From the NCBI GenBank assembly GCA_963851105.1, contig CAWKNP010000012.1, positions 9,444 to 73,443 of the forward strand: a DNA stretch of 64,000 bases, in the 5' to 3' direction. Made by a program: the position numbers and the translations under genes. Positions 32,643-59,600 of this stretch are shown one piece after another. Within the stretch, counting starts at the first letter, position 1, and the number at the start of each line of letters is the position of its first letter. The notes beneath the pieces are model-generated. The model did not search any database and had not been told where the DNA came from. It saw only the letters and a list, made by a program, of their open reading frames with translations. The stretch comes from an uncultured Actinomycetota bacterium (GTDB lineage Bacteria; Actinomycetota; Acidimicrobiia; Acidimicrobiales; Palsa-688).

Positions 32643-33035
32643 CTAGGGAAAGGGTGTGACGATCACCGAGCGTGCCGAGGTGACCTCGACGACGAGGACC
32701 TTGGCGTGCTTGTCGATGGGCTCGTCGGACCAAGCCGCGAACGCTTCGGTGCCGCCACGAACCGACAACAACACCTCACCCGGTCCGTTGACCGGGATTG
32801 GAATCGTCACCCGCCCGATGACCCCGACCACGCTCCCGGCATCAGCCGACACGTCCGACCACCTTGCTCGCCCGAAAGCGTTTCGCACTCCCTGTGATTT
32901 CCACTGTACCGACTGGCCGTCGCTGGCGGTCCCGGCCGATTCGCACCGCCGATCCAAAAGGACATTCAGGCGATCACCACTATCTGTACGGAATAGGAAC
33001 CCGCTTTGCCGGTGCACAGCATGGCCTCGCCACAT
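32643..33035 (-). CDS. NfeD-like OB-fold protein (flotillin partner)
   Basis: C-terminal 'GSVVGVIGRVTIPIPVNGPGEVLLSVRGGTEAFAAWSDEPIDKHAKVLVVEV' resembles the NfeD beta-barrel. Immediately upstream of the flotillin gene. N-terminus and start uncertain. Confidence 0.45.
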   Translation of the reverse strand: MWRGHAVHRQSGFLFRTDSGDRLNVLLDRRCESAGTASDGQSVQWKSQGVRNAFGRARWSDVSADAGSVVGVIGRVTIPIPVNGPGEVLLSVRGGTEAFAAWSDEPIDKHAKVLVVEVTSARSVIVTPFP

Positions 33036-33532
33036 GTGGTGCGGGACGCGCTGATCTGGGCGCTGCCGATCCCGACCGCGATCGAGGTCACCGAGGAAGT
33101 ACCGCAGCCGCCACCCGGTATGCAGGTACCCGGGGGTGCGGCCGTGACGACGACGTCACCTTGTTGTTGCACGACGGCGGGGTTGGGCGGGTTCGGGAAC
33201 TTCCAGTACGTACTGTTGAGCACTACGACAATCGTGGTGCCCTTGGTCACCGACACCGTCGTGCCGTCGTCGCGATCCGTCAGTTGGATCGTTCCCGACC
33301 GGGGCGCGGGGCGAGTGGTCGCTGTCGTCGTCGCCGTGTGCCTGCCGACAGTCGTAGGGGTGGTCGCCCCACTCGACGAGGTATCCGGTGAGAGGGTCGT
33401 GCTGGTGGTAGTGACCATCGTGGAGGTGGTCGCCAGCGTCTTGGTGGCGGTGCCGGCACCGCAGCCGGCCGACGCCACGACAACCAACCCGGTCACCAGA
33501 GCCGCAATCGGCCGTCGTCTGATCACAGTCAT
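32966..33532 (-). CDS. lipoprotein with Thr-rich linker (hypothetical)
   Basis: 'LVTGLVVVASAGCGAG' lipobox-like sequence. Start chosen at M17 of the track ORF. Overlaps the NfeD-like ORF, so one of the two starts is wrong. Confidence 0.45.
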   Translation of the reverse strand: MTVIRRRPIAALVTGLVVVASAGCGAGTATKTLATTSTMVTTTSTTLSPDTSSSGATTPTTVGRHTATTTATTRPAPRSGTIQLTDRDDGTTVSVTKGTTIVVVLNSTYWKFPNPPNPAVVQQQGDVVVTAAPPGTCIPGGGCGTSSVTSIAVGIGSAQISASRTTCGEAMLCTGKAGSYSVQIVVIA

Positions 33533-33769
33533 GGCAAGAGTAGCAACGGCCGCCGGGAGCGGGTGCCGCCACTTGAGCATGCCCAGCCGCGTCGATGACC
33601 AGCAACTAACCTCTGAGATGGCGGTTTCCGGTTCGTGGTGATTCGGTTCCGCCTGCTTTCACATGGGGATCGTTCATCAGTTTCTGCCAGGAAGAGCAAC
33701 CCTGCGGGCACCTGGGGGGTCTGAACGGATGGTTCACCACGGCGCTTCCCCAACCACCACGTCCATCTG

Positions 33770-36700
33770 ATGCTCTTCCCGACACTTTCCTTCGCCGCCT
33801 TTTTTGCTGTCGTGTTGCCCGTCAGCTGGATACTGATGCCGCACCGCGTCCGCTGGCGGCTGTTCATGGTGGCGGTCAGCTGGATCTTCTACGGCGCGGC
33901 CGACTGGCGGTTCGTGCCCCTCCTGGCGGGCTCGACCATCGTCAATCACTTCTTCGCCTGGCGCATCTACCATGCCGCCGGCAAGGCCCGGCGGGCCTGG
34001 ACGATCGGTGCTGTCACGACGAATCTGGCCGTGTTGGCGTGGTTCAAGTACATCGGTTTCCTGTCCCTGTCGTCCCAGAGCCTCCTGCACGACGTAGGGA
34101 TCCACGCCCATGTGCCCCTCCCCGAGGTGCTCTTGCCCATTGGGATCTCCTTTTTCACCTTCCAGGCACTGAGCTACGTGATCGACACGTCGCGGGGGAA
34201 GATCCAGCCGGTTTCGTTGCTCGAGTTCGCGGTCTACCTGTCGTTCTTCCCCCACCTCGTGGCGGGCCCCATCGTGCGGGCGACGGAGTTCCTGCCCCAG
34301 ATCAAGGAGCGGATCCGGCCCCGCCACGTGGACGTCGGCAAGGCGTTCTGGTTGATCTCGCTCGGTCTGTTCAAGAAGGTGGTCATCGCCAGCTACCTGG
34401 CCACCTACGCCGCCGACCCCGTGTTCGGCTTCCCCCGCCAGCACGCCGGCGTCGAGGCCCTCTTCGGCGTCTACGCCTACGCCATCCAGATCTATGCCGA
34501 CTTCAGCGGGTACACCGACATCGCCATCGGCCTCGCCCTGCTCCTCGGCATCAAATTCCCACAGAACTTCAACTCTCCTTATGCCGCCGCCAGCCTTCAG
34601 GACTTCTGGCGGCGGTGGCACATGACGCTGTCACGGTGGCTGCGGGACTACCTGTACATCCCCCTCGGCGGCAGCCGGCGAGGCCGGGTCCGGACCTACG
34701 TCAACGTCATGATCACCATGCTCCTCGGTGGGCTCTGGCACGGCGCCGCCTGGACATTCGTAGCGTGGGGGGCCCTCCACGGCGCCGGTTTGGTCGTCGA
34801 ACGGGCACGCCACGAATGGCGGTCGGCACCGGTCGGAGCAGAGCCCGACCATCGCAGAAGTCAGTCGTCCGCAGTCGGCGCGGACGCTGCTCCCACCCCG
34901 GAGGAATTCCTGGTCACAGCGTCGGTGGCGGCATCGGCGCGCGGGAGGAGTCCCGCCGTCGCCTCGGCTCGGGCGACCACGCCCAGGCCCTCGCCGGCGG
35001 CCTCACCGGGAGCGGCACCCCGGGCGCCCGTACCTCCTCCGGTGCCCTCGCCGGCGCCCTCACCTCTCCCGATGCCAGTGCCCTCGTCGGCGCCCGTACC
35101 TCCGCCGATGCCCTCGCCGGCGCCGTCGCCGGCGGCCTCCCCGGGAGCGGCGCCCCGGGCGCCCGTACCGCCCGCGGTGCCCTCGTCGGCGCCCTCACCG
35201 GGAGCGGCGCCCCGGGCGCCCGTACCTCCCCCGGTGCCCTCGTCGGCGCCGGTACCGGGAATGGTGCCCCGGGCGCCGGTACCTCCTCCGGTGCCCTCGT
35301 CGGCGCCCGTACCTCCGCCGATGCCGTCGTCACCTTCGTCGGCGCCGGTTCCCCGTCGGCGCCGGCGCCGGCGCCGGCAGACGAAGGTCCCGTTGTCCGC
35401 CGGCCGAAGGTTGCGACCCTTGCCCGCGACGAGGTCCTTACGGCCCGCCTGGCGGCTGCGACGCCGACAACTCCGGCCAATGGCGCTGTTTCGGATCCCG
35501 CCCCTGCCAATGGTGCGGCGACGGACCCCGGACCCTCCAACCTTGCGGCCAGGAACGAGGGAGCCATCGGCGCGGCCGGTAGCGCTCCCGCCGCTGGTCT
35601 CGCGCCCGATCCTGCCCCAGTCCGTGCTCTCGCATCCGCACCCGCACTCCCGAGTGCTCCTACCACGAGTGCTCCCCCCCGGGATTCCGCCGCCGCCGCC
35701 ACATCCTCGGCCACGGGCCGCCCGCCAGTCGTCCCACCCGCTGGGGTCACCGGCCGACCGGCACCGGGCACGGGCTTCCGCCGCCCCGAGGGCGCCGCGG
35801 CGCCGGCATCTGCCAGTGCGGGCCCTCCGCCCGCAGCCGCCGGTCCGGCCGCCGGCCGCCCCCGCCCCTGGCTGCCGCTGTTGTCACCCTCACGTGGTGC
35901 CGGGTCACCGCCCGCCCCGCCGGCCGCCGACTCTCTGCCCGACATCGCCCTGCCCGCGGCCGCTGCGCCCGCCCCGCCCGCGTCCGCTGCGCCCGCCCCG
36001 CCCGCGGCCGCTGCGCCGGCCCCGCTCCGTGGCCTCGCCCGCCTTCGCCTCCCGCTGTCCTTGCCTCGTCGTGGAGCCGGCACCCCGCCACCGGGCCACC
36101 CGACCGCCGAAGCCGGCCGACCTGACATTGCCCCGCCTTCCCTCCACGCCGCCCCTCCTGACAACGCCCCGCCTGGCATCGGGCAAGCCGCCCCGCCTGA
36201 AGGCGCCCCGCCTTCCGCCGCCCACGCCGCCCCGCCTGACAACGCCCCGCCTGGCATCGGGCAAGCCGCCCCGCCTGAAGGCGCCCCGCCTTCCGCCGCC
36301 CACGCCGCCCCGCCTGACAACGCCCCGCCTGGCATCGGGCAAGCCGCCCCGCCTGAAGGCGTCCCGCCTTCCGCCGCCGAAGCCCGCCCCCGTGAAGGCG
36401 CCTCGCCTTCCGCCGCCGAAGCCGGCCCGCCTGCGGCCGGCCGATCCCGCCTCCGGCTGCCGGTGCTGACGCCTGGTGGTGGTCTCGACTCTCCTACTGG
36501 CGGTTATGACGCCACTGCGGCCGGCCGCCGGCCCCGCCTTCGGATGCCGGTGTTGTCGCCTGGCCGTGGTGCCGACTCTCCGTCCGCCCGTGATGACGCC
36601 GGCTGGCCCCGTCTCCGCCTACCCGTGTGGTCGTCCGGTCGCGGATCCGGGGCCCCACCGCGGCCGGCTCGCCGGCGGCGGCCGCCGTTGTCGCCCACGG

Positions 36701-37032
36701 CGCAGTTGTGGGTCGGCCGGCTGATCACCTTCCACGTGGTGTGCCTGGCGTGGATATTTTTCCGGGCCACGTCGTTCCACAACGCCATCGAGGTGCTGCG
36801 GCGCATCGCCACCCTCGGCGGCCACCACCAGCCCTTCAACTGGAAAGTCGCGGCCGTCGTCGTGGGAGCACTCGCCATCCAGCTCGGCCCCCGGGGCGTC
36901 GGCGCCCGCCTTCAGATCATCTTCGCCCGGAGCCCGTTGTGGTGCCAGGTGGTCGCGGTGGCCGCGGTGTTGACGGCCATTGACCTGCTCGGCCCGGCCG
37001 GGATCGCCCCGTTCATCTACTTCCGCTTCTGA
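33770..37032 (+). CDS. MBOAT-family O-acyltransferase (AlgI/PatA/DltB-like) interrupted by a ~1.9-kb Pro/Ala-rich low-complexity insertion; frame changes between the N-terminal core and the C-terminal helices
   Basis: N-terminal core (frame of 33770) through 'WHGAAWTFVAWGALHGAGLVVER' (~34810), including the conserved His region. C-terminal 'LWVGRLITFHVVCLAWIFFRATSF...FIYFRF' lies in the frame of ORF 34039..37032. Both frames are open across 34039-36469. Confidence 0.6.
36148..36381. repeat. 78-bp tandem repeat x3 inside the MBOAT insertion (26-aa unit HAAPPDNAPPGIGQAAPPEGAPPSAA in one frame, TTPRLASGKPPRLKAPRLPPPTPPRL in the other)
   Basis: Direct sequence reading. The units are near-identical. 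Confidence 0.85.
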
Positions 37033-37039
37033 TGCCCCG

Positions 37040-38053
37040 ATGACGGCACGACGCCCGCGTCATGAAGTGGAGGGCCGCCGAACGGTGTCGGCCGCCCGCG
37101 CCATCGCCGTCTCCCTCCTCGGCATGTTGATCGCCGCCATGTTGAACGCTGACTCGATGGTTGCGACCATCGAGGGTCAGTCGTTCGGCACCTCCCGTTC
37201 AGTCAGCCTGGCTCTCGCCAGGCCGGTGCGCAGCATCAGCCACTGGACGGGACTGAACCTCCCGAGGAAGCTGATCGACGACACCGTAAGCCCGCACCAT
37301 TCTGTTCCCGTGGCGGTGACGCTTCCCCGGCGTGGCGCGCCAACCACCACACCGGCCGACGCCGGGCCGGTTGCGTCGACCACCACGACCCTCCCGCCCC
37401 GGCGAATGCCAACCGCGGCCCAGCCACTCAAAGTCTGGCTGGCCGGCGATTCGCTGATGGGGACCGTCGCAGAATCCTTCGCCGAGAAGGCAGGAGGCAA
37501 CGCCCTCCTCCAAGCCGGCCAGGAGTTCCGTATCGGCACCGGCCTGGCCCGACCCGACGTCTACGACTGGCCGGGCGCCATCAGCCACGAAGCGGCCACT
37601 GCCAACCCCGACGTGATGATCCTGGTGTTCGGGGCGAACGACGACCAGGACATGAGTGTGAACGGGCATCGTGTCTCTCTGCAGAGCGCGGAATGGCAAC
37701 AGGAGTACAGCCGCCGCGTCAACCAGATCCTCGATGTCGCGGCCAACGGAGTCCGTCAGGTCATCTGGCTTGGCCTGCCGGCGGTGCGTCGGCCCCGCCT
37801 CAACCAGACGAAAGACCTCATCAACGCCGCGGTCAAGGCAGCCGCGGCCGAACATCCCAATGTCACCTATCTCGATCTGGGACCGCTCATCGACGGGCCC
37901 GGCAACAGCTTCGCCACCTACCTGACCAACTCCAGTGGCAAGGCCGTCACGGTCCGGGAGTCCGACGGCATTCACATCACCAAGGCGGGCGCCGACCTGG
38001 TGACACCCACCATCCTGGCTGACATCAACCAGCTCTGGCACCTGCCCCACTGA
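37040..38053 (+). CDS. SGNH/GDSL-like hydrolase (PatB/AlgJ-like O-acetyltransferase partner), exported
   Basis: 'KVWLAGDSLMG' (GDS block I), 'VFGANDD' (block III), 'DGIHIT' (block V). N-terminal transmembrane or signal segment. ATG is 8 nt after the MBOAT stop. Confidence 0.7.
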   Translation: MTARRPRHEVEGRRTVSAARAIAVSLLGMLIAAMLNADSMVATIEGQSFGTSRSVSLALARPVRSISHWTGLNLPRKLIDDTVSPHHSVPVAVTLPRRGAPTTTPADAGPVASTTTTLPPRRMPTAAQPLKVWLAGDSLMGTVAESFAEKAGGNALLQAGQEFRIGTGLARPDVYDWPGAISHEAATANPDVMILVFGANDDQDMSVNGHRVSLQSAEWQQEYSRRVNQILDVAANGVRQVIWLGLPAVRRPRLNQTKDLINAAVKAAAAEHPNVTYLDLGPLIDGPGNSFATYLTNSSGKAVTVRESDGIHITKAGADLVTPTILADINQLWHLPH

Positions 38054-41039: not shown

Positions 41040-42194
41040 CTAGGCCCTCCCGGGAGGCCGCTCCCCCGGAGGAGGCGTGGCCGCCGGCGGCGCCTCCCCG
41101 GACCCCGCAGCCGCAGCTTCCGAGGCCTCCCCGGGCCCCCCCGGCGCAGCCGCGGCCTCCCCGGGCGCAGCAGCCGCCGCCGCCGCAGCCGCCGCCGCTG
41201 CTTCCACGGGCGCCCCAGCCGCACCCGCAGCCGCAGTGTCCTCGGGGTCGCCGGCGCCGGCGCCGCCCGCACTGGGGACCCACGCCACTTCCTCGCGCCG
41301 GAGGCGCTCGATGATGCGCCCCCGCAAGGCCCGGGCAATGGCGGCGTTGTTGCCCACCGCCGACTTGGCCACGATGCGGATGGTGACGCCGTCGGCCGCG
41401 ACACCCTGGACCCCGAGCACCGCCGGCGGCTCGAGGATCTTGCCCTCCCATTCCGGGTCTCGGGCAAACGCCGCCCCCTCCTCCGCCGCCAGTGCCTGGA
41501 CCCGGTCGAGGTCGGTGCCCGGGGGGACGACGACGTCGACGATCGCCTGGCTGAAGCCCTCGGAGCTGTTGCCGACCTTGCGGATCTCGCCGTTGGCGAT
41601 GTACCAGACGGTCCCGTCGACCGCCCGCACCCGGGTGGTGCGCAGGTTGAGCCCCTCCACGGTGCCATTGACGTCGTTGGTCGTGATGGTGTCGCCCACG
41701 CCGTACTGGTCCTCGATCACGATGAGGAGGCCCGAGAGGAAGTCCTTGACCAGCGACTGGGCACCGAAGCCGACAGCCGCGCCGATGACCGTGGCGGTGG
41801 CCACGAAGGGCCCCAGGTTGATCCCGATGACCCCGAGGATCGTGAGGAAGGCGATCACCCAGACGATCGTGCGGAAGACGTCGCCGAGCACCGTTGCGAC
41901 GGTGCTCGCCCGCTCGGTGGCCCGCACCGACGTCAGGCGAGCCGGCGCCCGCAGTTGCAGCGCCCGGATCAGCCGTCGTACCGCTCGCGGCACCAATCGG
42001 GTGACGAGCCAGGCGCTGAACACCACCACGACGATGCGGAACGGCCCCACCGACAGCGCCTGGACGGTGTGGGCGGTGGTGTCGGACACACCGTGGTCGT
42101 GCAGGAACTGATAGATCGATCCGCCTGACGATGGGGCGGCGAGCAGCATCAGCGGATGGTACCGGGTCCAATTCCTGAGTGGTTGGGTCGACAT
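41040..42194 (-). CDS. MscS-family mechanosensitive channel with Ala-rich C-terminal tail
   Basis: Transmembrane region plus 'GFGAQSLVKDFLSGLLIVIEDQYGVGDTI' MscS pore/beta-domain signature. Start chosen at 'MSTQPL'; the track ORF extends to 42233. Confidence 0.85.
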   Translation of the reverse strand: MSTQPLRNWTRYHPLMLLAAPSSGGSIYQFLHDHGVSDTTAHTVQALSVGPFRIVVVVFSAWLVTRLVPRAVRRLIRALQLRAPARLTSVRATERASTVATVLGDVFRTIVWVIAFLTILGVIGINLGPFVATATVIGAAVGFGAQSLVKDFLSGLLIVIEDQYGVGDTITTNDVNGTVEGLNLRTTRVRAVDGTVWYIANGEIRKVGNSSEGFSQAIVDVVVPPGTDLDRVQALAAEEGAAFARDPEWEGKILEPPAVLGVQGVAADGVTIRIVAKSAVGNNAAIARALRGRIIERLRREEVAWVPSAGGAGAGDPEDTAAAGAAGAPVEAAAAAAAAAAAAPGEAAAAPGGPGEASEAAAAGSGEAPPAATPPPGERPPGRA

Positions 42195-44534: not shown

Positions 44535-44855
44535 TTACCGGTAGCGAGTGGCGGTAATGAAGCCGCAGGTGATCAATCCGAGCCCGACGAAGAGATAGGC
44601 GTTCTTGGCGCCCCCGGGCAACAGGCCCAGGTAATTGCACACGATGGTCAACATCCCGAGGACGAGGAACGCGAGCAGGAGGACGGGCACCCACTTCGGG
44701 CTTTCCTTGTAGTACTTCGGGGTGGGCGGGGTGTACCGGCCCGATACCGGTGCGGGAGCGCCACTCTTCGCCACCGGCCTGTTGCCCCCTTTGGGGGTCA
44801 CCCGGCCGCCCTTCGGCGTCGCCCGTCCCGGGGCGGTCTTGGTCCGTCTCGCCAT
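44535..44855 (-). CDS. crgA: cell-division protein CrgA-like (two-TM septation protein)
   Basis: Basic N-terminus 'MARRTKTAPGRATPKGG', 'YTPPTPKYYKESPKWVP', two transmembrane segments. Sits upstream of trpG-pknB. Start chosen at M33 of the track ORF. Confidence 0.65.
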   Translation of the reverse strand: MARRTKTAPGRATPKGGRVTPKGGNRPVAKSGAPAPVSGRYTPPTPKYYKESPKWVPVLLLAFLVLGMLTIVCNYLGLLPGGAKNAYLFVGLGLITCGFITATRYR

Positions 44856-44922
44856 ACGCCCGAGGATAGCCCTGACCCAAACTCGCCTGCGGGCGGGGAC
44901 GCCGCCACCTACGCTGCGAACC

Positions 44923-45525
44923 GTGTCCGCCCGGATCCTCGTCGTCGACAACTACGACAGTTTCGTCTACAACCTCGTGCAGTACCTGGGCGAGCTGGGC
45001 GCCGATCCGATCGTGTTCCGCCATGACGCCATCGACGCCGACGGCGTCGCCGCCATGACGCCGGCGGGAGTCCTCATCTCGCCGGGCCCTGGACGCCCGG
45101 AGGATGCCGGCGCCAGCAACGACGTGATCCTGGCGCTGGGCACCGCCGGTGTGCCGGTGCTCGGGGTTTGCCTCGGCCACCAGTGCATCGGCCAGATCTT
45201 CGGCGGTCGGGTTGTCCGGGCGAGGGCGGTCATGCATGGCAAGACCTCGCTCGTGCATCACAACGGCCAGGGCGTCCTGGCCGGCCTACCCGATCCCTTC
45301 CGGGCCACGCGGTACCACTCGCTGGTGGTCGACGCGGCGTCGGTGCCCCCCACCCTCGAGGTCACGGCGTGGACCGACGACGGCACCGTCATGGGCCTGC
45401 GCCACCGCGAGCTACCGATCGAAGGGGTGCAGTTCCACCCCGAGTCGATCCTCACCGACGAGGGCCACCGCCTGTTGGCCAACTGGCTGGCGCGCTGCGG
45501 CGCCGAGGTGCCTGCCGCCGGCTAA
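44923..45525 (+). CDS. trpG: anthranilate/aminodeoxychorismate synthase glutamine-amidotransferase component (TrpG/PabA)
   Basis: 'ILVVDNYDSFVYNLVQYL', catalytic 'GVCLGHQ', 'FHPES'. Confidence 0.85.
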   Translation: MSARILVVDNYDSFVYNLVQYLGELGADPIVFRHDAIDADGVAAMTPAGVLISPGPGRPEDAGASNDVILALGTAGVPVLGVCLGHQCIGQIFGGRVVRARAVMHGKTSLVHHNGQGVLAGLPDPFRATRYHSLVVDAASVPPTLEVTAWTDDGTVMGLRHRELPIEGVQFHPESILTDEGHRLLANWLARCGAEVPAAG

Positions 45526-47468
45526 GCCTTCGATGTGGTTGTCGTGGCGGGGACGGTCGACCCTGTCGTCGAGGTCGTCCCCGACATCGTGATGGTGACG
45601 GTCGATCCCTTGGGCGCGGTGCCCCCGCTCGGATTCTGGCTGATGACCGTTCCATTTTTCGAGCCGCTGACGGCCACGCTGAAGCCGGCGCCGGTCAGGG
45701 TGGCCTGGGCCGACGACAGAGTCTGGCCAGTGACGTCAGGCACGGGCACCGCCTGGGGACCCGACGACACGTAGATCGTGACTCTGGCACCGGAGGCGAC
45801 GCTGGTGCCCGCGGGGGGATCGGTCCTCGTCACCTTGTTGGATGGCTCGCTGGTCGACGCTTCCGTTGCCTGCGCCACCTTGAACCCCAGTCCGCCCAAG
45901 TCGGCGCCCGCGGCGGTGGGGTCCTTGCCCGCCTCGTCGGGAATCTTGACCTGAGCCTTGCCGAGCGAGATGGTCAGAGTGACGGTGCTGCCCTTGTCGG
46001 CCGGGGTACCGGCCGCCGGCTGGGTGTCGATCACGGCACCCGCGGGCACGGTGTCGGAGTTCTGGGTGGGGCCGGCCGCGGGCACGAACCCGTATTGGGG
46101 GCTGCGCAGGGTGTTTTCCGCGGTCTGCTGATCCTGACCCCGGACGTCAGGCACCTGGACCTGCACGGGGGCCGAAGCGACGACGAGGTTTACCGTCGAG
46201 CCCTTCTTGACGATGGTCGCGGGCTTGGGGTCGCTGTCGGTGACCGTGCCCGTGGGCGAAGAGAGCTTGGTCTTCAGACCGAGCCCTTCCAGTTCGGTGA
46301 CCACGTCGGCGACGGGGTGGCCCACGATGTCGGTCGGGATCGCGACCTGGCCGCCTGTCGAGCTGCCGAAGACGCCGAGCTGGTTGCCGAGGAGGAACAA
46401 CAACCCCACCAGCACCGCCAGCATGAGGACCAGCACGACGATGTAGGCGCCGCTGCGCCGGCGGGTGGTGGCCTCGGGGGGCGGCCCGCCGCCGTAGCCG
46501 GACGGCACGGCGCGCCCGGCGCGGGTCGCGGCCACACCCGCGGGCATGACCCGCGTGCCGGCGTACTGCTGACCCCGGGTGGGGCCGGCGGCGGCCGCCA
46601 GCGGCTGGGCCAGGACACCGCTGCCGCGGACGTAGCGCATGAGGTCGGCGCGGAGCTCGTCGGCCGACTGGTACCGGTCGGCCGGATCTTTGGCCATGGC
46701 CTGGAGGATGATCGCCTCGAGGGAAGGCGGCACCGCCCGGTTGACCAGCGTCGGGGCGATGGCTTCTTCCCGCACGTGCTTGTAGGCAATGGCGACGGGG
46801 TTGTCGCCCGAGAAAGGCGGCCGCCCGGTCACCATCTCGTAGAGGACGACCCCGAGGGAGTACACGTCGCTGCGGGCATCGACCGGGTAGCCCTGGGCCT
46901 GCTCGGGCGAGAAATAGGTGGCCGTCCCCATGACCGTTCCCGTCTGAGTCAGGCCTTCCTTGGCGCCCACCGCCCGGGCGATGCCGAAGTCGGTGACCTT
47001 GACCTGTCCCGACTTGTCGATCAGCACGTTCGCCGGCTTGATGTCGCGGTGGATGACGCCGTGGGTGTGGGCGAAGGTCAAGGCGGCGGCCACATCCGCG
47101 GCCAGCGTGGCGGCATGATCGGCGTCGAGGGGTCCCTGGCGCAGCAACTGCGCGAGCGTGCGGCCGTTGACGTACTCCATGACGATGAAGTAGGTGTGCT
47201 CGCCCTCACCCCAGTCGTAGACCGAGACGATGTTCGGGTGCGAGAGGTTGGCCGCCGCCTGGGCCTCCCGCCGGAACCGTTCCACGAACGAGCGGTCGAC
47301 CGACAGCTCGGGGAACAGGACCTTCAGCGCGACCGGCCGGTCGAGCAGCAGGTCCTTGGCCAGGTACACCTGGGCCATGCCGCCGCGGGCCACGTGGCGT
47401 ACGAGCTCGTAGCGATCATTGAAGACACGAGCCGCCGGTCGCTCCTGCCCGGGGGGAGGCTGGGTCAT
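45522..47468 (-). CDS. pknB: Ser/Thr protein kinase PknB with four PASTA domains
   Basis: 'ARGGMAQVYLA', 'HRDIKPANVLI', 'DFGIAR', one transmembrane segment, four ~65-aa PASTA repeats. Start at 'MTQPPPGQ'. The 1,166-aa track ORF merges it with an upstream junk frame. Confidence 0.9.
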   Translation of the reverse strand: MTQPPPGQERPAARVFNDRYELVRHVARGGMAQVYLAKDLLLDRPVALKVLFPELSVDRSFVERFRREAQAAANLSHPNIVSVYDWGEGEHTYFIVMEYVNGRTLAQLLRQGPLDADHAATLAADVAAALTFAHTHGVIHRDIKPANVLIDKSGQVKVTDFGIARAVGAKEGLTQTGTVMGTATYFSPEQAQGYPVDARSDVYSLGVVLYEMVTGRPPFSGDNPVAIAYKHVREEAIAPTLVNRAVPPSLEAIILQAMAKDPADRYQSADELRADLMRYVRGSGVLAQPLAAAAGPTRGQQYAGTRVMPAGVAATRAGRAVPSGYGGGPPPEATTRRRSGAYIVVLVLMLAVLVGLLFLLGNQLGVFGSSTGGQVAIPTDIVGHPVADVVTELEGLGLKTKLSSPTGTVTDSDPKPATIVKKGSTVNLVVASAPVQVQVPDVRGQDQQTAENTLRSPQYGFVPAAGPTQNSDTVPAGAVIDTQPAAGTPADKGSTVTLTISLGKAQVKIPDEAGKDPTAAGADLGGLGFKVAQATEASTSEPSNKVTRTDPPAGTSVASGARVTIYVSSGPQAVPVPDVTGQTLSSAQATLTGAGFSVAVSGSKNGTVISQNPSGGTAPKGSTVTITMSGTTSTTGSTVPATTTTSKA

Positions 47469-47494
47469 CGCAGAGAGCCTGTCACACGACGCAT

Positions 47495-48961
47495 CTAGGG
47501 GCCTTGCAGGGCGGCGGTGAGGATCGCCTTGGCGATGGGGGCGGCGATGACGCCGCCGGTGGCCTCCCCGCCCTCGGGCTGGCTCTCGACGAGGACCGCG
47601 ACCGCCACCTTGGGCTGAGTCGCCGGGGCGAAGCACACGAACCAGGCGTGGATGGTGTTGTTGCCCGTCTGGGCGGTACCCGTCTTGCCCGCCACCTGGA
47701 TGCCGGGGATCTGGGCCGCGGTGCCGGTACCCGACTGGACGACCGATTGCATCAGCTGGGTCATCTGCGTCGCCGTCTCCGGCGAGGTGGCGGTCATCCA
47801 CGGCGACGGCTGGTACGTCCGCACGACCTGGCCTTGGGAGTTGGTGACCTGGGCGAGGACGTGCGGTGTCATCATGACGCCGCCGTTGGCGATGGCGCCC
47901 GCGATCATGGCCATGTTGAGCGGGACGGCCTGGACGTTCTGCTGGCCGATCGCCGACTTGGCCAGGCCCGGCAGGTCGTGGACGAAGCTGCTGGCCGGTG
48001 GAAACAGAGACTGGGCCGCTTCGGGGAGGTCGAGCGGGGGCGTCTTGTCGAAGCCGAAGCTGATCGCCTCGTCGGCCAGGGACTGGGGCCCGAGGTCGAG
48101 GCCGATGGCCGCGAAGCCGCTGTTGCACGACACCCGGAACAGGTCCGGCAGGGTCCCGCCGCACACCTCGCCCCCGAAATTGCGCAGCAGCTGGCCGCCC
48201 GTCTGGGGGAGAGGCAGGGCCGACAGCTGTGGGTAGACCTTGGTGGCCAGCGTGGGGTTCTTGTCGAAGACCGCCGACGAGGTGATCACCTTGAATGTCG
48301 ACCCGGGGAAGAAGCGCTGGCGGAAACTGGCGGCCAGCAGGGGCTGGTCGGGGCTGGCATTTTGCGCCTGCCAGTAGGTGCGGACCTGCTGCTGATCGTG
48401 CGACGACAGCGGGTTGGGGTCGAACGACGGATTGCTGTACATGGCGAGGATGGCCCCGGTGGTCGGATCGAGTGCCACGACTGCGCCCTTGCGGGCGCCT
48501 AGCTGGTTCTTGGCCAGCTGTTGCAACTTGTCGGAAAGCGTCAGCGTCACCGTCTGGCTCTTGTCCTGCTTGACCGTCAGGTCCTTCAGGCTGTGGGGGA
48601 GTTGCAGCGGGCTGTTGGCGCCGGTCAGGTCGGCATCGAAGCTGCGCTCGGCGCCCTCGAGCCCGTAGGTGAAGGAGAAAAAGCCGGTGATCTGGCCGAA
48701 CAGGTCGCCCCGGGGATAGGTCCGCAGATACTTGAGCGCGTCCGACGTCGGCTGTGAGTGGGCCAGGACGACTCCATCGGACGACGTGATGTCGCCCCGC
48801 TTGGTCGTGAACTTGGCCAGCGCCAGGCGGGTGTTCAGATGGTTGTGATCCAGGTTGGACGCCCGGACGACCTGGATGTAGTTGAGCTGGAGGAACAGCA
48901 GGACGAACAGCACGGCGATGCCGACGCCCGCGATGCGGATCTGGCGGTTCATGCGGTTCAC
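47495..48961 (-). CDS. pbpA: class B penicillin-binding protein PbpA
   Basis: 'GSTFKVITSSA' (SxxK), 'SCNSGFA' (SxN), 'AGKTGTAQ' (KTG). N-terminal transmembrane segment. Confidence 0.9.
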   Translation of the reverse strand: MNRMNRQIRIAGVGIAVLFVLLFLQLNYIQVVRASNLDHNHLNTRLALAKFTTKRGDITSSDGVVLAHSQPTSDALKYLRTYPRGDLFGQITGFFSFTYGLEGAERSFDADLTGANSPLQLPHSLKDLTVKQDKSQTVTLTLSDKLQQLAKNQLGARKGAVVALDPTTGAILAMYSNPSFDPNPLSSHDQQQVRTYWQAQNASPDQPLLAASFRQRFFPGSTFKVITSSAVFDKNPTLATKVYPQLSALPLPQTGGQLLRNFGGEVCGGTLPDLFRVSCNSGFAAIGLDLGPQSLADEAISFGFDKTPPLDLPEAAQSLFPPASSFVHDLPGLAKSAIGQQNVQAVPLNMAMIAGAIANGGVMMTPHVLAQVTNSQGQVVRTYQPSPWMTATSPETATQMTQLMQSVVQSGTGTAAQIPGIQVAGKTGTAQTGNNTIHAWFVCFAPATQPKVAVAVLVESQPEGGEATGGVIAAPIAKAILTAALQGP

Positions 48962-50295
48962 GCCGCCACCGTGAAGTCGGCGGCCGCCCCGGCCGCCACG
49001 ATCTCCGGCGCCGAGGAGTCATTGCTGATCCGCAGCAGCAGCGCCAGCAGGATGTAGTTGGCGATGAGGCTGCTGCCGCCGTAGCTGACGAACGGCAGCG
49101 TGATGCCCGTCAGCGGGATGATCCGGGTAACGCCGCCCAGGATCACGAAGACCTGAACGCCGATGATGAGCGAGAGCCCGGTGGCCAGGAGCTTGTCGAA
49201 CGGCCGCTCGCAGCGCACCGCGATACGCAGGCCGGTGCCTACCATGAGGAGGAACGCGGCCACGACGGCGACGGCACCGAACAGCCCGAGCTCTTCCGCG
49301 ATGGCGGCAAAAATGAAGTCCGTCGCCACCTCGGGGATCCGCTGCGGGCTGCCGAGGCCGGGACCGTCGCCGAACACACCGCCGGCGGCCATGGCGAACT
49401 GCGCCTGGATGATCTGGTAGCCAGTGGTGTTGTAGTGGGGCCACGGGTTGCGCCACGTACCGATCCGGGTCTTGGCGTGGCCGATCACCTTGGCCGCGAA
49501 GGCGGCGCCGACAGCGAACAGGACAGCGCCGATGGCGAGGTATTCGTTGCGGCCGGTCGAGACCCACAGCATGCTGACGAACAGTGCGAAGAACAAGAAC
49601 GAACTGCCCAGGTCGTTCTCGAAGGTGAAGATGGCGAGCGACAGGCCCCATGCCACGACCAGCGGCGCCAGGTACTTCGGGTCGACGAACAAATAGCGCC
49701 CGACCTTCAGGGTCCCCTGCGAGAGGAGTTCGGCGCGTTCGACCATGTAGGAGGCAAAGAACACCGCGAGGGCGATCTTGGCCAGCTCGCCGGGCTGGAA
49801 GGTCACGCTGCCGACGCGGATCCACAGCCGGGCGCCGTTGATGTTCTGGCCCACGACCGGCAGGAGGGGCATGAGCAGCAGCCCGATGCCGAGGAAGGCG
49901 AAGATATAGCGGTAGCGCTCGAGGTCCCGGGCCTTCTTGACCACGAACAGGGTGAGGAGGAACGCACCGATGCCGATGGTCGTCCACAGGGCCTGCAGGC
50001 CCGCGAGGTGGCGGTTGAGGCGGGCGATGAACACGTAGCCGACACCGTTGAGCAGGGCCGCGGTGGGCAGGAGGATCGGGTCGGCGTAGGGGGCCAGCTT
50101 GCGCATCCCGAGATGGGCGAGGACGAGGAGCCCGCAGATGATGCCGAGGAAGGGGCCGATGTTGGCGGGCAGAGAGCCCGCCTTGCCCAGGCTGGCCAGT
50201 ACGTAGAGGCCCGCGGTCAGCATGATCGCGAGCACGATCAGGCCCAACTCGGTCCGGCGGCGCGCCGGCAGACGGTAAGTGGAATTGGCGATCAC
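48958..50295 (-). CDS. rodA: FtsW/RodA/SpoVE-family peptidoglycan polymerase (RodA)
   Basis: Ten transmembrane segments, 'FQPGELAKIALAVFFASY' signature. Stop overlaps the pbpA start. Confidence 0.9.
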   Translation of the reverse strand: MIANSTYRLPARRRTELGLIVLAIMLTAGLYVLASLGKAGSLPANIGPFLGIICGLLVLAHLGMRKLAPYADPILLPTAALLNGVGYVFIARLNRHLAGLQALWTTIGIGAFLLTLFVVKKARDLERYRYIFAFLGIGLLLMPLLPVVGQNINGARLWIRVGSVTFQPGELAKIALAVFFASYMVERAELLSQGTLKVGRYLFVDPKYLAPLVVAWGLSLAIFTFENDLGSSFLFFALFVSMLWVSTGRNEYLAIGAVLFAVGAAFAAKVIGHAKTRIGTWRNPWPHYNTTGYQIIQAQFAMAAGGVFGDGPGLGSPQRIPEVATDFIFAAIAEELGLFGAVAVVAAFLLMVGTGLRIAVRCERPFDKLLATGLSLIIGVQVFVILGGVTRIIPLTGITLPFVSYGGSSLIANYILLALLLRISNDSSAPEIVAAGAAADFTVAA

Positions 50296-50299
50296 CAGG

Positions 50300-51580
50300 T
50301 CACCGGTGGGGCACGGTCGTCGCCACCGTCGTGGTCGGGGCGGTGGTGGTGGTCGTGGTCGTGGTCGTGGTCGTTGTGGTCGTCGTGGCGTTGTTGATGT
50401 AGTCGAGGGCGGCTTGCAGCGACGGTTCTTCCTTGCCTTCCTTCACCGCCGGCTGATAGCTGGCGGCCACGTCGGTCAACTTGACGCCGGTGCTCTTGGC
50501 CACCGTCGGCTGAAACCACAGCAGGCCGCCCGGGCGACCCTTGTAGACCGTGAGGAGGTCGTGGTCGAGGCCGACGAAGTACGTTCCGCGGGCGTAAAGG
50601 GCAACCGCCACGCCCGCGCCGCCCACCAGAGCGATCAGTAGGGCCAGGAAGGCGACGACCCGAAGCGTGATGGGCCGGGACTTGACCACGACCGGAACGT
50701 CTTGCCGGCGGGCACGGCTGCGGCGGCCATCGGGGGGCCCGGTAGTTCCCGCCCCCTTTTTCCCCGGCTGTTCGTCGGACTCCACTGGCGGGATGGGGGA
50801 GGGGATGAACACACCGGGATTGGTTTTCAGCGCCTCCGACGCGACCAGAGGCAGGTCCCCGTCATCGACCACGTCGATGATCACCACCGTGATGTTGTCG
50901 TTGCCCCCCCGGTTCTTGGCCGCGTTCACCAGCTCCCGGGCGGCGTCGTCGGCCTCTGCCAGGCGCCGCAGGATGCTGGCGATCTGGGTGTCGTTCAGTT
51001 CCCGGGAGAGGCCGTCGCTGCACAGCAGCAGACGGTCGCCCTTGAGCGGCAGGACCTGCAATACGTCCACGCTGACCTCGGAATCCACACCCAGGGCCCG
51101 GGTGAGGACGTGGCGTTGGGGGTGGACGGTCGCCTCGACCTCGGAGAGCTGGCCGTCGTCGACCAGTTCCTGGACCAGGCTGTGGTCGGTCGTCAGCTGT
51201 TCCAGCTCGCCGCCTCGCAGCAGGTAGACGCGGGAGTCGCCCACATTGATGATCGCCAGGCGATCCTCGCCGTCCTCGCTGACGAGGGCCACCGCCACGA
51301 GCGTCGTGCCCATGCCGTGGAGGTCGGGGTTCGCCTGGGCCCGGTCCCAGATGGAGCGATTGGCTTGGTGGGTGGCCTCGACCAGGCCCTCGGTCCCGCT
51401 CTTGCGCTCGTAGGCCGCTTTGAGGGCTTCCACCGCCGCCAGCGATGCCACTTCCCCGGCCGCGTGGCCACCCATGCCGTCGGCCACCGCGAACAGGTCG
51501 GCGGTGACGAGGAGCTGGTCCTGGTTGGATGTCCGGACACGCCCGATGTCGGTGGCGGCGCCCGCTCGGAGGGTGGTCAT
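50300..51580 (-). CDS. pstP: PP2C-family Ser/Thr phosphatase PstP with transmembrane segment and extracellular Thr-rich tail
   Basis: 'DIGRVRTSNQDQ', 'FAVADGMGGHAAGEVAS', 'LCSDGLS', 'GGNDNITVVI'. Poly-Thr is encoded by (GTCGTG)n on the plus strand. Confidence 0.9.
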   Translation of the reverse strand: MTTLRAGAATDIGRVRTSNQDQLLVTADLFAVADGMGGHAAGEVASLAAVEALKAAYERKSGTEGLVEATHQANRSIWDRAQANPDLHGMGTTLVAVALVSEDGEDRLAIINVGDSRVYLLRGGELEQLTTDHSLVQELVDDGQLSEVEATVHPQRHVLTRALGVDSEVSVDVLQVLPLKGDRLLLCSDGLSRELNDTQIASILRRLAEADDAARELVNAAKNRGGNDNITVVIIDVVDDGDLPLVASEALKTNPGVFIPSPIPPVESDEQPGKKGAGTTGPPDGRRSRARRQDVPVVVKSRPITLRVVAFLALLIALVGGAGVAVALYARGTYFVGLDHDLLTVYKGRPGGLLWFQPTVAKSTGVKLTDVAASYQPAVKEGKEEPSLQAALDYINNATTTTTTTTTTTTTTTAPTTTVATTVPHR

Positions 51581-52054
51581 CGGGACAGCTCGAGGACCGA
51601 TTTGCCCACCTGCAGTCGGTCGCCCTTGTGGAAGGCAACCGTGCCGGTGACCGGGCGGTCGTTGACGAAGGTCCCGTTGGTGGAGCCCAGATCCTCGACG
51701 AACAGGGAGCCATCGCGGCGAAATACCCGGGCGTGGAGGGTCGAGACAAAGGTATCGTCAGGCAGGGAGATGCCGCAGCCGATGGCCCGGCCGACGGTGA
51801 GTTCGTCGCCCAGTTCGAACGACTGGCCGTACTGGTCGGCGGGCTCGAGCACCACCAGCCGTTCCGGGGCGTTGCCGGCCCATGGCGCCCGGTTCTCGCG
51901 CGCCGCGGCGGGCGGGGGCGGGGGCCGCCACCGCGATCTGGACCGACTTCGGTTCCCGCAGCTCGGCCCACACCGCCCGCAGGACGCGGATGAAGAACAG
52001 GTAGAGCAGGCCGAGGAAGATCAGCTTGAGGGCGGTGAGGAGGGAATCAGGCAT
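51577..52054 (-). CDS. fhaB: FhaB/FipA-like protein (transmembrane + FHA domain) with an apparent +1 frameshift in a G/C-rich run
   Basis: N-terminal transmembrane segment 'MPDSLLTALKLIFLGLLYLFFIRVLRAVW' in one frame. FHA domain 'LVVLEPADQY...TVGRAIGCGISLPDDTFVSTLHARVF...EDLGSTNGTFVN' in the +1 frame. The frames diverge near the GGGCGGGGGCGGGGGCC run around 51900. Confidence 0.65.
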
Positions 52055-56382: not shown

Positions 56383-56684
56383 AGTCAGATTTCTTCTTTC
56401 GCCTGTGGCCCGCCAAGGGTGTGTCGCACGACGCCCCGAGTCTTGCTGGAATCGCGCTGAGGTTGGGTAATGGCATCTGCCGGCGCCCGCGAACGGCCCG
56501 TGGAAGCGACGCAAGGGATCCTCTGAACGACATCTGATACCAAGATTTACCTTTGTCCGTTGCGTCGGCTACTCTCATGGAGATCAACGGTCAATCGTAC
56601 GGGCTTGGGCTGGTTCGGCGGTTTGGACATACTTCTTGAAGCTGACGCAGATCTCGTCAGCATCTGTCAGGGGAAAAGAATCAG

Positions 56685-59600
56685 ATGAAGCGCAGCAAGC
56701 GTCCCGAGGACTCGGGCGTGCCGTCGTCGACCGAAGAGGTCGACTCCATTTTCCGTTTCAGTGAGCGTCATTTGGGTATACGGCACCATCGTCACAATGA
56801 AGGACGTTTTGCCGTCGGGGGCACAAGGGGGATGGTGAAGATGGGCAACCGGTTGCGAGGGGGCACCCAATCGAGTCCAGGAGACCGCCGGCTGCTTCGG
56901 GGCCACGGCCTGAGGTCTTTGCGCGGGCCCGGTTCGGGCGCGGACTCCCCGTCCCGACCCGGGCGCCGCGTCGTCCAGGGCCTGGTGGCCCTGGCGATCG
57001 GTGTCGCCCCCTTTGCCATTGGTATCCCCGCCGCCTTGGCGGGCGTCGGCTTCGGCGTCACCCCGAACTTCCCGTCGAATGTCACCGTCGGCGACAGCGG
57101 AACGCCGGCATCCCTGCAGATCCAAAACACCGCCAATGGCGCGCAGTTCCACCTCACGGCGACGCTCTCCACCATCAACTTGGTCCCGGCGTGCGGTTCG
57201 ACCGGGTTCACCCCCACCGGCGACTGCCCCGCGGCCGACGCGCAACCCGGGGTCTTCCAGTTGAGTCCGACCGGTAGTGGTGAGGCCGGGACTGCCTGCG
57301 CAGGAAAGACCTTCACGATCACTGTCATCGATCCCGCCACCGGGCAGGTGACGTTCACCCCCGTGGGGGGCCCCGTGATCCTCGGTCCCGCCGACGGTCT
57401 CGGACCGCTTTCCCCGGTCTGTCGCATCGATTTCACGTTCAGCGTCCTTAGGGAACCAACCATCGACGCCGACCCGGCACCCGGTATCCAGACGGCGGAG
57501 CTGGGTTTCGCCCAAGGCACCACGAGCGACGGCGTTCCCGGTTCGGGCCTCGGCTCCAACCTCACCACCGTTGCCAAGGCCCAGCCGGCTCTGACGACGA
57601 CCGCGACCACGACCGGCAGGGTGGGCGCCCCGATCACTGACACCGCCCACCTCGTGGCGGCGGCGCCTCCCGCGCCCGCCCCCACCGGGACCATCACCTT
57701 CACCCTGTTCACTACCGCCAACTGCACCGGCCCGGGCGTGTTCACCTCCACAGTGACCGTGACCTCCGGCGGTGGCAATTACACCTCGGGACCGTTCACA
57801 CCGACCGCGCCCGGCACATACAAATGGATCGCGGCCTACAGCGGCGACGCCAACAACGCTGCCCTCACCACCGCCTGCGGTGACCCCGGCGAGACCAGCA
57901 CGATCTCCCGACGGACCCCCGCCATCGTCACCACTGCCTCGGCGCCAACCACAATTGGCGGCCCGATCTCGGACAGCGCAGTGCTTTCCGGCGGGTTCAA
58001 CCCCACCGGCTCGATCGTCTTCAACGTGTTCGGCCCGAACGACGCCACCTGTACGAGGGCGGTGGCTTTCACCTCCACGGTGCCGGTCGCCGGCAATGGC
58101 ATCTACAACTCGGGGCCGTTCATCCCGACCGCACCCGGCTCCTATAACTTCGTCGCCAGCTACAGCGGTGACGCCAACAACGCGCCGGTGACCAGCGCCT
58201 GCGGCGCCGCCAACGAGAACACCACCGTCAACAAGGCGACTCCCGCCATCGTCACCACCGCTTCGGGCGCCGGCCCCGTCGGGGGGACCATCGCCGACAG
58301 CGCGGTCCTGTCCGGCGGTGTTGCCCCCACGGGGACCATCGTCTTCAAGGTCTTTGGCCCCAACGACGCCACCTGCACCGGAGCGGTGGCGTTCACGTCG
58401 ACGGCGACAGTGAACGGCAACGGCACCTATCCCTCGGCCAACTTCACGACCACCGCCGCCGGCACGTACCGGTTCGTGGCCTCCTACAGCGGCGACGCCA
58501 ACAACGCCGCGGTCACGACGTTGTGCAGCGACCCGGCCGAGGCGGTCGTCGTCACCAGGGCCACCCCTGCCATCGTGACGACGGCTTCGCCGACGGTGCC
58601 CGCCGGCGGCGCCATAAGTGACACCGCCACCCTTTCCGGCGGCGTGGCTCCAACGGGAACGATCACCTTCACCCTCTTCGGCCCCGCCAACATCAACTGC
58701 ACCGGCGCCGCCATCTTCACCTCGGTCGTTGCGGTCGCCGGCAATGGCGTCTACCCCTCGGGACCGTTCACGGTGACCACGCCGGGGACGTACAACTGGG
58801 TGGCGGCCTACAGCGGCGACGCCAACAACGCCGCCGCCGTGAGCCCCTGCGGCGCCCCCAATGAATCGGTGATCGTCACCAAGGCCAACCCGGCCATCGT
58901 CACGCAAGCCTCCTCGTCGGTCCCCGCCGGCGGCCCGATCACCGACACCGCCACCCTGTCGGGCGGCGCCGCCCCCACCGGGTCGATCACCTTCACGGTG
59001 TTCGGCCCGAACAATGCCACCTGCACCGGGGCCGCTGTGTTCACCTCCACCGTGCCCGTCGCGGGCAACGGCAACTACACCTCAGCACCGTTCACCACTC
59101 CCGCCGCCGGGGTCTACCGCTTCGTCGCCGCCTATAGCGGCGATGCCAACAACACCGCGGTCACGACGGGCTGCAACGACGCCAACGAGAGCGTCATCGT
59201 CACCAAGGCGCCGCCCGCCATCGTGACCCACGCCTCGGCGCCCGTGGCGGCCGGCGGCACGATCCGCGACGTCGCCACCCTCTCCGGTGGCGTCAACCCA
59301 ACCGGCACCATCAGATTCACGGTCTTCGGCCCCAATGACGCCACCTGCTCCAGGGCGGCGATCTTCACCTCGATCCGGCCGGTCAGTTCCGGCAATGGCA
59401 ACTACTCCTCGGCACCGTTCACCGTCACGGTGGCCGGGACCTACCGCTTCATCGCGGCGTACAGCGGTGACGCCAACAACGTCGCCGTCGCCACGACGTG
59501 CAACGACGCCAACGAGAGCGTCGTCGTCAGCCCGGCGACGCCGGCCATCGTGACCAACGCCTCGGCGACGGTCCCCGCCGGCGGGCCGATCAGTGACTCC

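Follow-up and report, generated by a model that had tools for sequence, protein, structure and literature searches.

The 64,000-nucleotide (nt) stretch of contig CAWKNP010000012.1 analysed here (hereafter the window), from an uncultured Acidimicrobiales lineage, carries a PatA/PatB-type pair of genes at 33770-38053, in which a membrane-bound O-acyltransferase (MBOAT) is followed by an SGNH-family partner. The pair is of a known kind, and its unusual part is a giant low-complexity loop within the MBOAT. The two genes probably form a single operon for extracytoplasmic O-acylation of a cell-envelope glycan, the acyl group most likely being acetyl. As given, the window encodes the MBOAT core and its last helices in different frames with the low-complexity stretch in between, an arrangement that the initial annotation had described and that Pfam matches, translations and GC content bear out, together with the SGNH gene that follows. 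Among the explanations offered there, a real giant loop combined with an assembly indel is the best supported. The loop is real and is seen only in this clade, and the balance of the evidence favours a single MBOAT open reading frame (ORF) of ~1087 codons, from which one base at 35354/35355 would be missing through an error of the assembly consensus rather than through mutation.

The evidence for a continuous gene comes from a sister species. The frame-1 translation of the loop, used as query, retrieved P0121, a single-frame MBOAT of 1019 residues with a homologous loop of 578 residues and a core 98% identical to that of the window; an insertion at the same loop, which the initial annotation had proposed to look for in orthologues, is present in this protein and, in shorter versions, in other relatives. 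The contig of P0121 (L082, JGI 3300055098) shares the gene order of the window, with ~88% nucleotide identity over 16 kilobases (kb), and a second, independent 1019-residue copy from a JGI metagenome (P0122) differs from P0121 by four substitutions and zero indels. In the blastn alignment with L082, position 35354/35355 of the window holds a single 1-nt gap, adjacent to a run of four cytosines in sequence of roughly 80% GC:

35351-35355, + strand: frame-change site, the run of four cytosines followed by G (GGTTCCC-CGTCGG in the window, GGAGCCCTCGATGG in the sister ORF; blastn and three-way alignment).

Up to 35353, it is frame 2 of the window that stays in register with the L082 ORF; past the gap, it is frame 1. 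Addition of one base after 35354 yields an ORF of 1087 codons with zero internal stops and the predicted junction peptide ...SSAPVPPSAPAPAPADEGPVVR, whereas the out-of-frame product is Arg-rich (e.g., ...APVPRRRRRRRRQTK...). The break sits ~550 nt into the loop, away from both of its boundaries near 34810 and 36700. Downstream of the break the reading frame is fixed by two islands that are conserved among homologues:

35398-35439, + strand: conserved loop island RRPKVATLARDEVL (frame 1).
35752-35781, + strand: conserved loop island GRPAPGTGFR (frame 1).

The counterparts of RRPKVATLARDEVL are RRPKVATLARDE in P0121, RRPKVITLPRDE in P0005, RRPKVVTVARGE in P0002 and PRLKVAIVAQDV in P0003, and those of GRPAPGTGFR are GRPAPGAGFR in P0121 and P0001, and GRQPPGAGFR in P0003.

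The two ends of the MBOAT are conserved parts of an acyltransferase of the PatA type. The first ORF (33770-36469, frame mod3=2) opens with the N-terminus MLFPTLSF..., the same opening as in all homologues, and matches PF03062 over residues 104-351 with 121.2 bits (cut-off 27; E 8e-35). The conserved portions are:

33770-34804, + strand: MBOAT catalytic core, residues 1-345 (frame mod3=2; PF03062).
36721-37032, + strand: C-terminal module, comprising the last core helix, two more hydrophobic helices, FIYFRF and stop (frame mod3=1; translation and hydropathy).
36721-36771, + strand: last core helix LITFHVVCLAWIFFRAT (translation).
36835-36885 and 36937-36993, + strand: the extra hydrophobic helices of the C-terminal module (hydropathy).
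37012-37029, + strand: acyl-shuttle motif FIYFRF (translation), with the stop codon at 37030-37032.

The invariant catalytic histidine is found within WHMTL (34616-34630). From 34616 onward, WHMTLSRWLRDY pairs with the DltB segment WHMSLSFWFRDF, which places the histidine in its W-H-x-x-L-S-x-W-x-R-D-Y context, and a phmmer comparison of the core with the DltB structure 6BUG (E 1.7e-36) aligns FWRRWHMTLSRWLRDY to FWNRWHMSLSFWFRDF. PatA-type MBOATs are characterized by two extra transmembrane helices and a FXYXXF motif, the invariant Tyr of which is auto-acetylated in PatA (bioRxiv 10.1101/2024.09.17.613324 = PMC12148441). Here FIYFRF follows two extra helices, though not in the frame of the core; the stretch LITFHVVCLAWIFFRATSF...FIYFRF* belongs to frame mod3=1, with its end at 37032. 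The core is 98% identical in amino acids to that of L082 and 100% identical to that of L163, a second contig from the window's species, and its ratio of non-synonymous to synonymous substitution (dN/dS) against L082 is 0.035, at a synonymous divergence (dS) of ~0.3. For the last 112 codons, translated in frame 1, dN/dS against L082 is 0.057 at the same dS of ~0.3; hence, the C-terminal part has been translated in frame 1 for essentially all of its history.

The partner gene starts 8 nt past the MBOAT stop codon, on the same strand, although its start may alternatively lie near 37067, where the gene call of the sister species maps:

37040-38053, + strand: PatB-family (DUF459) SGNH acyltransferase partner (PF04311, 187 bits, cut-off 27.2, E 3e-55).

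Its protein consists of an N-terminal membrane anchor (37100-37144), a Pro/Thr linker and a catalytic portion, with the serine in a GDS motif (37442-37462) and the Asp and His in DGIH (37964-37981), and it matches its L082 counterpart over the full length. DUF459 is the PatB family (PMC9487903), and comparison with the solved PatB structures 7TRR/7TJB (E 2.9e-22) aligns AGDSLMG and DGIH. The score against the NCBIfam PatB equivalog NF045704 is 98.8 bits, far under the cut-off of 580, so the partner belongs to the family as a distant relative for which the same acceptor or function is not to be assumed. Similarly, the MBOAT scores 183 bits against the DltB equivalog TIGR04091, for which the cut-off is 375.

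A survey of related loci indicates that both the single frame and the pairing are the rule. Core and C-terminus are read in one frame in 148 of 152 related loci, contrary to the possibility that the two halves are normally separate genes, and a single continuous ORF from core to shuttle motif, broken in the window as given, is likewise present in P0121 and P0122. A DUF459 homologue lies directly downstream of the MBOAT in 112 of the 122 related loci with enough downstream sequence, which, together with the structural matches of the partner, upholds the earlier assignment to a PatA/PatB-like pair. By taxonomy, most of the related loci belong to Acidimicrobiia, Thermoleophilia and other Actinomycetota, and some to Chloroflexota; many of the homologues are annotated as AlgI by JGI.

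Measured from the anchor motif WGALHGAGL to the anchor motif FHVVCLAW, the loop that separates the core and the C-terminal module is 646 residues long. In the reading supported by homology, it contains 25% Pro and 23% Ala, with Arg/Lys in excess of Asp/Glu, and the GC content across ~34805-36720 is 75-82%. The loop and its tandem repeats, located mainly with Tandem Repeats Finder (TRF), are as follows (bp, base pairs):

34805-36720, + strand: giant Pro/Ala-rich low-complexity loop (frame 2 to 35354, then frame 1).
34987-35308, + strand: imperfect 57-bp (19-codon) tandem repeat, 5.3 copies, 74% matches (TRF), encoding ...APRAPVPPPVPSSAPVP... in frame 2.
35946-36034, + strand: 24-bp tandem repeat, 3.7 copies, 90% matches, encoding an AAAPAPPA-type peptide (TRF, repeat families).
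36066-36481, + strand: 39/78-bp tandem repeat, the 78-bp unit in 3.4 copies with 95% matches, encoding APPSAAHAAPPDNAPPGIGQAAPPEG.
36434-36600, + strand: 87-bp repeat, 1.9 copies, with the peptide motif R-x-R-L-P-V-L-S-P-G-R-G (TRF).

Near-perfect repetition is limited to the 78-bp and 24-bp arrays. The loop had been described as built from near-perfect repeats of ~66 bp and 78 bp; the latter unit stands, whereas ~66 bp is one spacing inside the 57-bp family. Copies of R-x-R-L-P-x-L-S-P-G-R-G number, by eye, ~5 in the window (35860-36660) and ~7 in the sister species, and a regular-expression scan for motifs of this type returns two and four, respectively. All repeat periods (57, 24, 39/78 and 87 bp) are multiples of 3, and therefore the repeats are not the cause of the frame change.

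The loop occupies the position of the Lys-rich loop of DltB ahead of the final helix, as judged by alignment. When helices are counted back from the C-terminal motif, which is extracytoplasmic, the positive-inside rule, together with the published PatA model, charge and hydropathy, would place the loop in the cytoplasm, where it is predicted to be disordered. Between fixed anchors, the loop is 35 residues in P0083, 108-180 residues in a closer clade, 578 residues in P0121 and 646 residues in the window. Core homologues are typically 467-480 residues long, and those of the closer clade are 510-630 residues, with the extra residues all at this loop and in one frame. In nucleotides beyond the conserved anchors, related loci have a median of 40 and a 90th percentile of 149, while L001 and L159 have 402, L081 has 754, L082 has 1686, and the window and L163 have ~1890. 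Among the best 150 representatives at 50% identity, no comparable giant disordered loop was found; the long proteins inspected in this survey show a frameshift run-on into the partner gene (P0178), extra membrane helices in the same loop (P0168), an insertion elsewhere in the core (P0197) or, by match coordinates, N-terminal extensions (P0201 and P0234). Apparent loops of 2.8 kb in L069 and L034 were rejected as artefacts of a second MBOAT copy downstream. Further alleles of the same species were absent from the matches listed in a metagenome scan, almost all of which are distant relatives with 45-57% identity.

The amplified units differ between the two species, with 57-bp and 78-bp arrays in the window, where ~275 bp of the 57-bp array is extra relative to the sister species (a blastn gap against L082), and a 60-bp AVPPGVEAGAGTVAAARG array in the sister. 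This difference indicates that the loop evolves fast by in-frame duplication. In the sequences compared, the giant loop represents growth at a position where relatives already vary, and not a foreign insertion. We note that the loop site takes insertions repeatedly: P0168 has two extra predicted membrane helices inside the same loop, L137 contains tandem STAVVDAGR repeats in an independent loop of 393 nt, and P0178 (908 residues) is a frameshift run-on that fuses the MBOAT core to the DUF459 partner, an artefactual gene model at the same loop.

The coexistence of two long open frames, which the initial annotation had remarked on over ~2.4 kb, holds for 34039-36469, and the observation calls for no special explanation. 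Upon codon shuffling of the real frames, each off-frame segment is stop-free in 19-36% of trials. The open frames follow from base composition, namely the abundance of Pro, Ala and Gly codons that lack T at position 2 and a GC content at third positions (GC3) of ~0.9. A candidate break near 34900, suggested by a synonymous codon-preference score that favours frame 1 over 34880-35300, was dropped as a composition artefact, and homology was preferred. The score is misled since Pro, Ala, Ser and Thr codons have C at position 2, which becomes the third position when reading starts one base earlier (NNC codons). For the same reason frame 0 seems best at 35420-35960, although homology proves frame 1 there, and the effect recurs in the sister ORF. 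Over 34880-35960, the frame one base upstream beats the true frame on both codon preference and GC3, and frame-plot methods thus mislead in coding sequence rich in Pro, Ala, Ser and Thr. An antisense gene in the loop was also rejected: the minus-strand in-register frame is open over 34861-35883, with a lower score, Arg-rich junk upstream and no ORF of at least 60 residues.

Whether the missing base belongs to the organism or to the assembly has to be weighed from related contigs. In the long-loop clade, frame breaks occur in L081 (contig_32612), L163 (contig_16484) and L164 (contig_132993_np1212), which we take as long-read assemblies from their contig names only, and the MEGAHIT and JGI relatives examined are in frame. 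Frame changes are confined to the loop in L163 (at least eight) and L164 (at least two), and L081 is broken in several genes. L163 has 98.2% identity to the window over 12.4 kb, and 22 of the 26 mutual indels are within 35065-36601. Against a consensus error, L163 is also exactly one base short at the same junction, where its spacer is 17 nt against 23 nt in the window (both 2 mod 3); the shared shortfall means either a context-specific systematic error or a mutation common to both strains.

The strongest competitor, which we regard as possible and clearly less probable than a consensus error, is a real and very recent 1-nt deletion fixed in the species, through which the MBOAT would lose its last three helices and the shuttle Tyr and become a young pseudogene. 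PatA function needs this Tyr, so such a truncation would inactivate the enzyme, and the out-of-frame loop would be free to gather more small indels. L163 does have many additional small indels only in the loop, as expected under a loss of constraint. The window and L163 share the -1 frame state at the junction despite a 6-nt in-frame indel difference there. Moreover, no other broken gene was seen in the window: 13 neighbouring genes have unbroken full-length matches to L082 genes, one segment each; the PknB kinase, the fourteenth, is clipped by the L082 contig end and matches in one segment over the available part, and eight further genes have complete Pfam domains. The low general error rate that this implies favours a real deletion, and the otherwise clean window is also counted among the points for a consensus error. 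However, the constraint on the C-terminal codons (dN/dS 0.057 at dS ~0.3) makes any inactivation far younger than the split from the sister species, the identical core proteins of the window and L163 conceal four synonymous and zero non-synonymous changes, and the partner gene is intact. In addition, the breaks of the long-loop clade occur only in contigs with long-read-style names, including one from a different lineage (84% identity) broken at other positions, for which a technical cause fits better. An error of the consensus in a gene of ~1087 codons therefore remains our preferred reading.

A different question is whether the length of the loop has a function. The loop contains the conserved short motifs RRPKVxTLARDEV and GRPAPGxGFRRPE, plus the R-x-R-L-P-x-L-S-P-G-R-G copies, and it is conceivable, though we think it unlikely, that it is a selected cytoplasmic scaffold and not the outcome of neutral growth; the same low standing is given to the further possibility of a truly split enzyme whose shuttle fragment acts in trans like DltX. 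If the loop were a scaffold, its motifs might tether or regulate envelope O-acetylation via cytoplasmic partners, e.g., those of the PknB/PstP/PbpA/RodA module 8-14 kb away.

A frameshifted or two-part product, made either by a -1 ribosomal shift or by separate synthesis of the C-terminal helices with FIYFRF that would then act in trans, is very improbable. In Dlt systems, the shuttle motif is indeed on a separate microprotein, DltX (bioRxiv 10.1101/2024.09.17.613324 = PMC12148441), and gene callers have annotated separate C-terminal ORFs of 114 residues (P0125) and 146 residues (P0123). The precedent of DltB plus DltX aside, this option of the initial annotation found no positive evidence. 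Inspection of 35345-35360 (GTT CCC CGT CGG) reveals neither a slippery heptamer of the X XXY YYZ type nor a long homopolymer on which transcription could slip. No Shine-Dalgarno-like sequence was seen by eye before the earliest in-frame ATG, near 36545 (Met in ...RLRMPVLSPG...). Unlike DltX, a separate fragment would have to provide the last core helix as well. The break also lacks conservation: in the sister species and the great majority of related loci, core and C-terminus are in frame. Least credible of all is the destruction of the gene by the repeat expansion itself, which was among the explanations first proposed: variability within the locus is indeed greatest in the loop, with its lengthened 57-bp array and other amplified units, but every period preserves the frame, the sister species carries a comparably long loop within an intact ORF, and the frame change is a 1-nt gap off any repeat boundary.

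With the single ORF restored, the pair would operate as a relay across the membrane. With its invariant histidine, the PatA-type core would accept the acyl group of a cytoplasmic donor and pass it to the Tyr of its own C-terminal FIYFRF at the outer membrane face; the membrane-anchored PatB/DUF459 enzyme would then receive it on the GDS serine and hand it on to the polymer. The loop ahead of the last three helices measures a few dozen residues in most relatives; within this genus, in-frame tandem duplication would have extended it to ~650 Pro/Ala-rich residues. The shuttle Tyr is encoded past the frame break, and hence a truncated product would be inactive.

The genes neighbouring the pair encode an MFS transporter, a CPBP protease, VIT1 and MscS. 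The MscS-like gene (41055-42149, minus strand) shows indels of 3, 7 and 1 nt between the window and L163, at 41085, 41186 and 42031, inside another low-complexity stretch, of 77% GC; its gene call in L163 is 351 residues, against a match that spans 365 window codons, and L163 may contain indel errors outside the MBOAT loop as well. Upstream of the pair, a minus-strand ORF (32966-33580; gene 33006-33580) encodes a Thr/Ser-rich protein of ~186-204 residues with an N-terminal hydrophobic segment. This protein is 71% identical to its L082 counterpart, compared with 91-98% for the flanking genes, and the gene is probably fast-evolving and its product a secreted protein or lipoprotein. A conserved actinobacterial cell-wall and division cluster lies at 44538-51757, 7-14 kb downstream of the acetylation pair:

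44538-44816: crgA.
45524-47089: PknB-like kinase.
47495-49018: PbpA.
48958-50442: RodA/FtsW.
50300-51757: PP2C phosphatase.

At the end of the window, a plus-strand frame (56646-63998) is open for more than 2450 codons and continues past the window end. It contains arrays of a 324-bp unit (14.3 copies) and a 354-bp unit (3.3 copies), spanning 57774-62412 and 62835-63994, and Ig-like Pfam domains, Big_3_5 above cut-off (E 3e-11) and Big_15 with 29.8 bits against 27. Its product looks like a giant repetitive surface protein. Three minus-strand ORFs of 118 codons at 62927-63988 are antisense shadows of the 354-bp repeat.

As annotated, the acyltransferase locus would pass for a broken gene or for two odd ORFs. 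The post-break piece carries the shuttle Tyr, and the organism's ability to modify its wall polymer therefore depends on whether a single base is real. If the base was lost in the assembly, the case shows how repeats of 80% GC can yield false pseudogenes in long-read metagenome assemblies. With a loop ~15 times the usual length, the MBOAT is an extreme example of how in-frame tandem duplication can inflate a polytopic membrane enzyme at a permissive loop. The frequency of the pair among related loci, mostly of Actinomycetota with some of Chloroflexota, also contrasts with a 2022 review, in which the PatB family is listed as Gram-negative only.

Among known systems, AlgI/AlgJ/AlgF/AlgX (alginate), WssH/WssI (cellulose) and Bacillus PatA1/PatB1 (secondary cell-wall polysaccharide) share the MBOAT-plus-SGNH class and the C-terminal FXYXXF; unlike AlgX, the partner described here hits DUF459 and general GDSL/SGNH Pfam families, with no alginate-type AlgX domain. 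The DltB/DltX/DltD system of teichoic acid D-alanylation provides the closest solved MBOAT structures (DltB 6BUG and 8JEM, E ~1e-36), the same order from MBOAT to Tyr shuttle to SGNH enzyme, and the Lys-rich loop at the position of the giant loop, whereas the MBOAT of the window has a sub-cut-off DltB score, its shuttle motif is fused to the MBOAT, and its partner is of the PatB type and not DltD. The likeness to PatA/PatB, which O-acetylate peptidoglycan in Neisseria gonorrhoeae and Campylobacter jejuni, includes the order of an MBOAT and then a DUF459/PatB-family SGNH gene with an N-terminal anchor, the invariant histidine, the two extra C-terminal helices ending in FXYXXF (FIYFRF here, FIYANF in NgPatA), and a partner with Ser/Asp/His motifs that matches PatB crystal structures. 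The differences are that the host is a Gram-positive-type actinobacterium, with relatives in Acidimicrobiales, that the partner is a distant relative by its score on the PatB equivalog (98.8 against 580 bits), and that the MBOAT carries a loop of ~650 residues in place of a few dozen.

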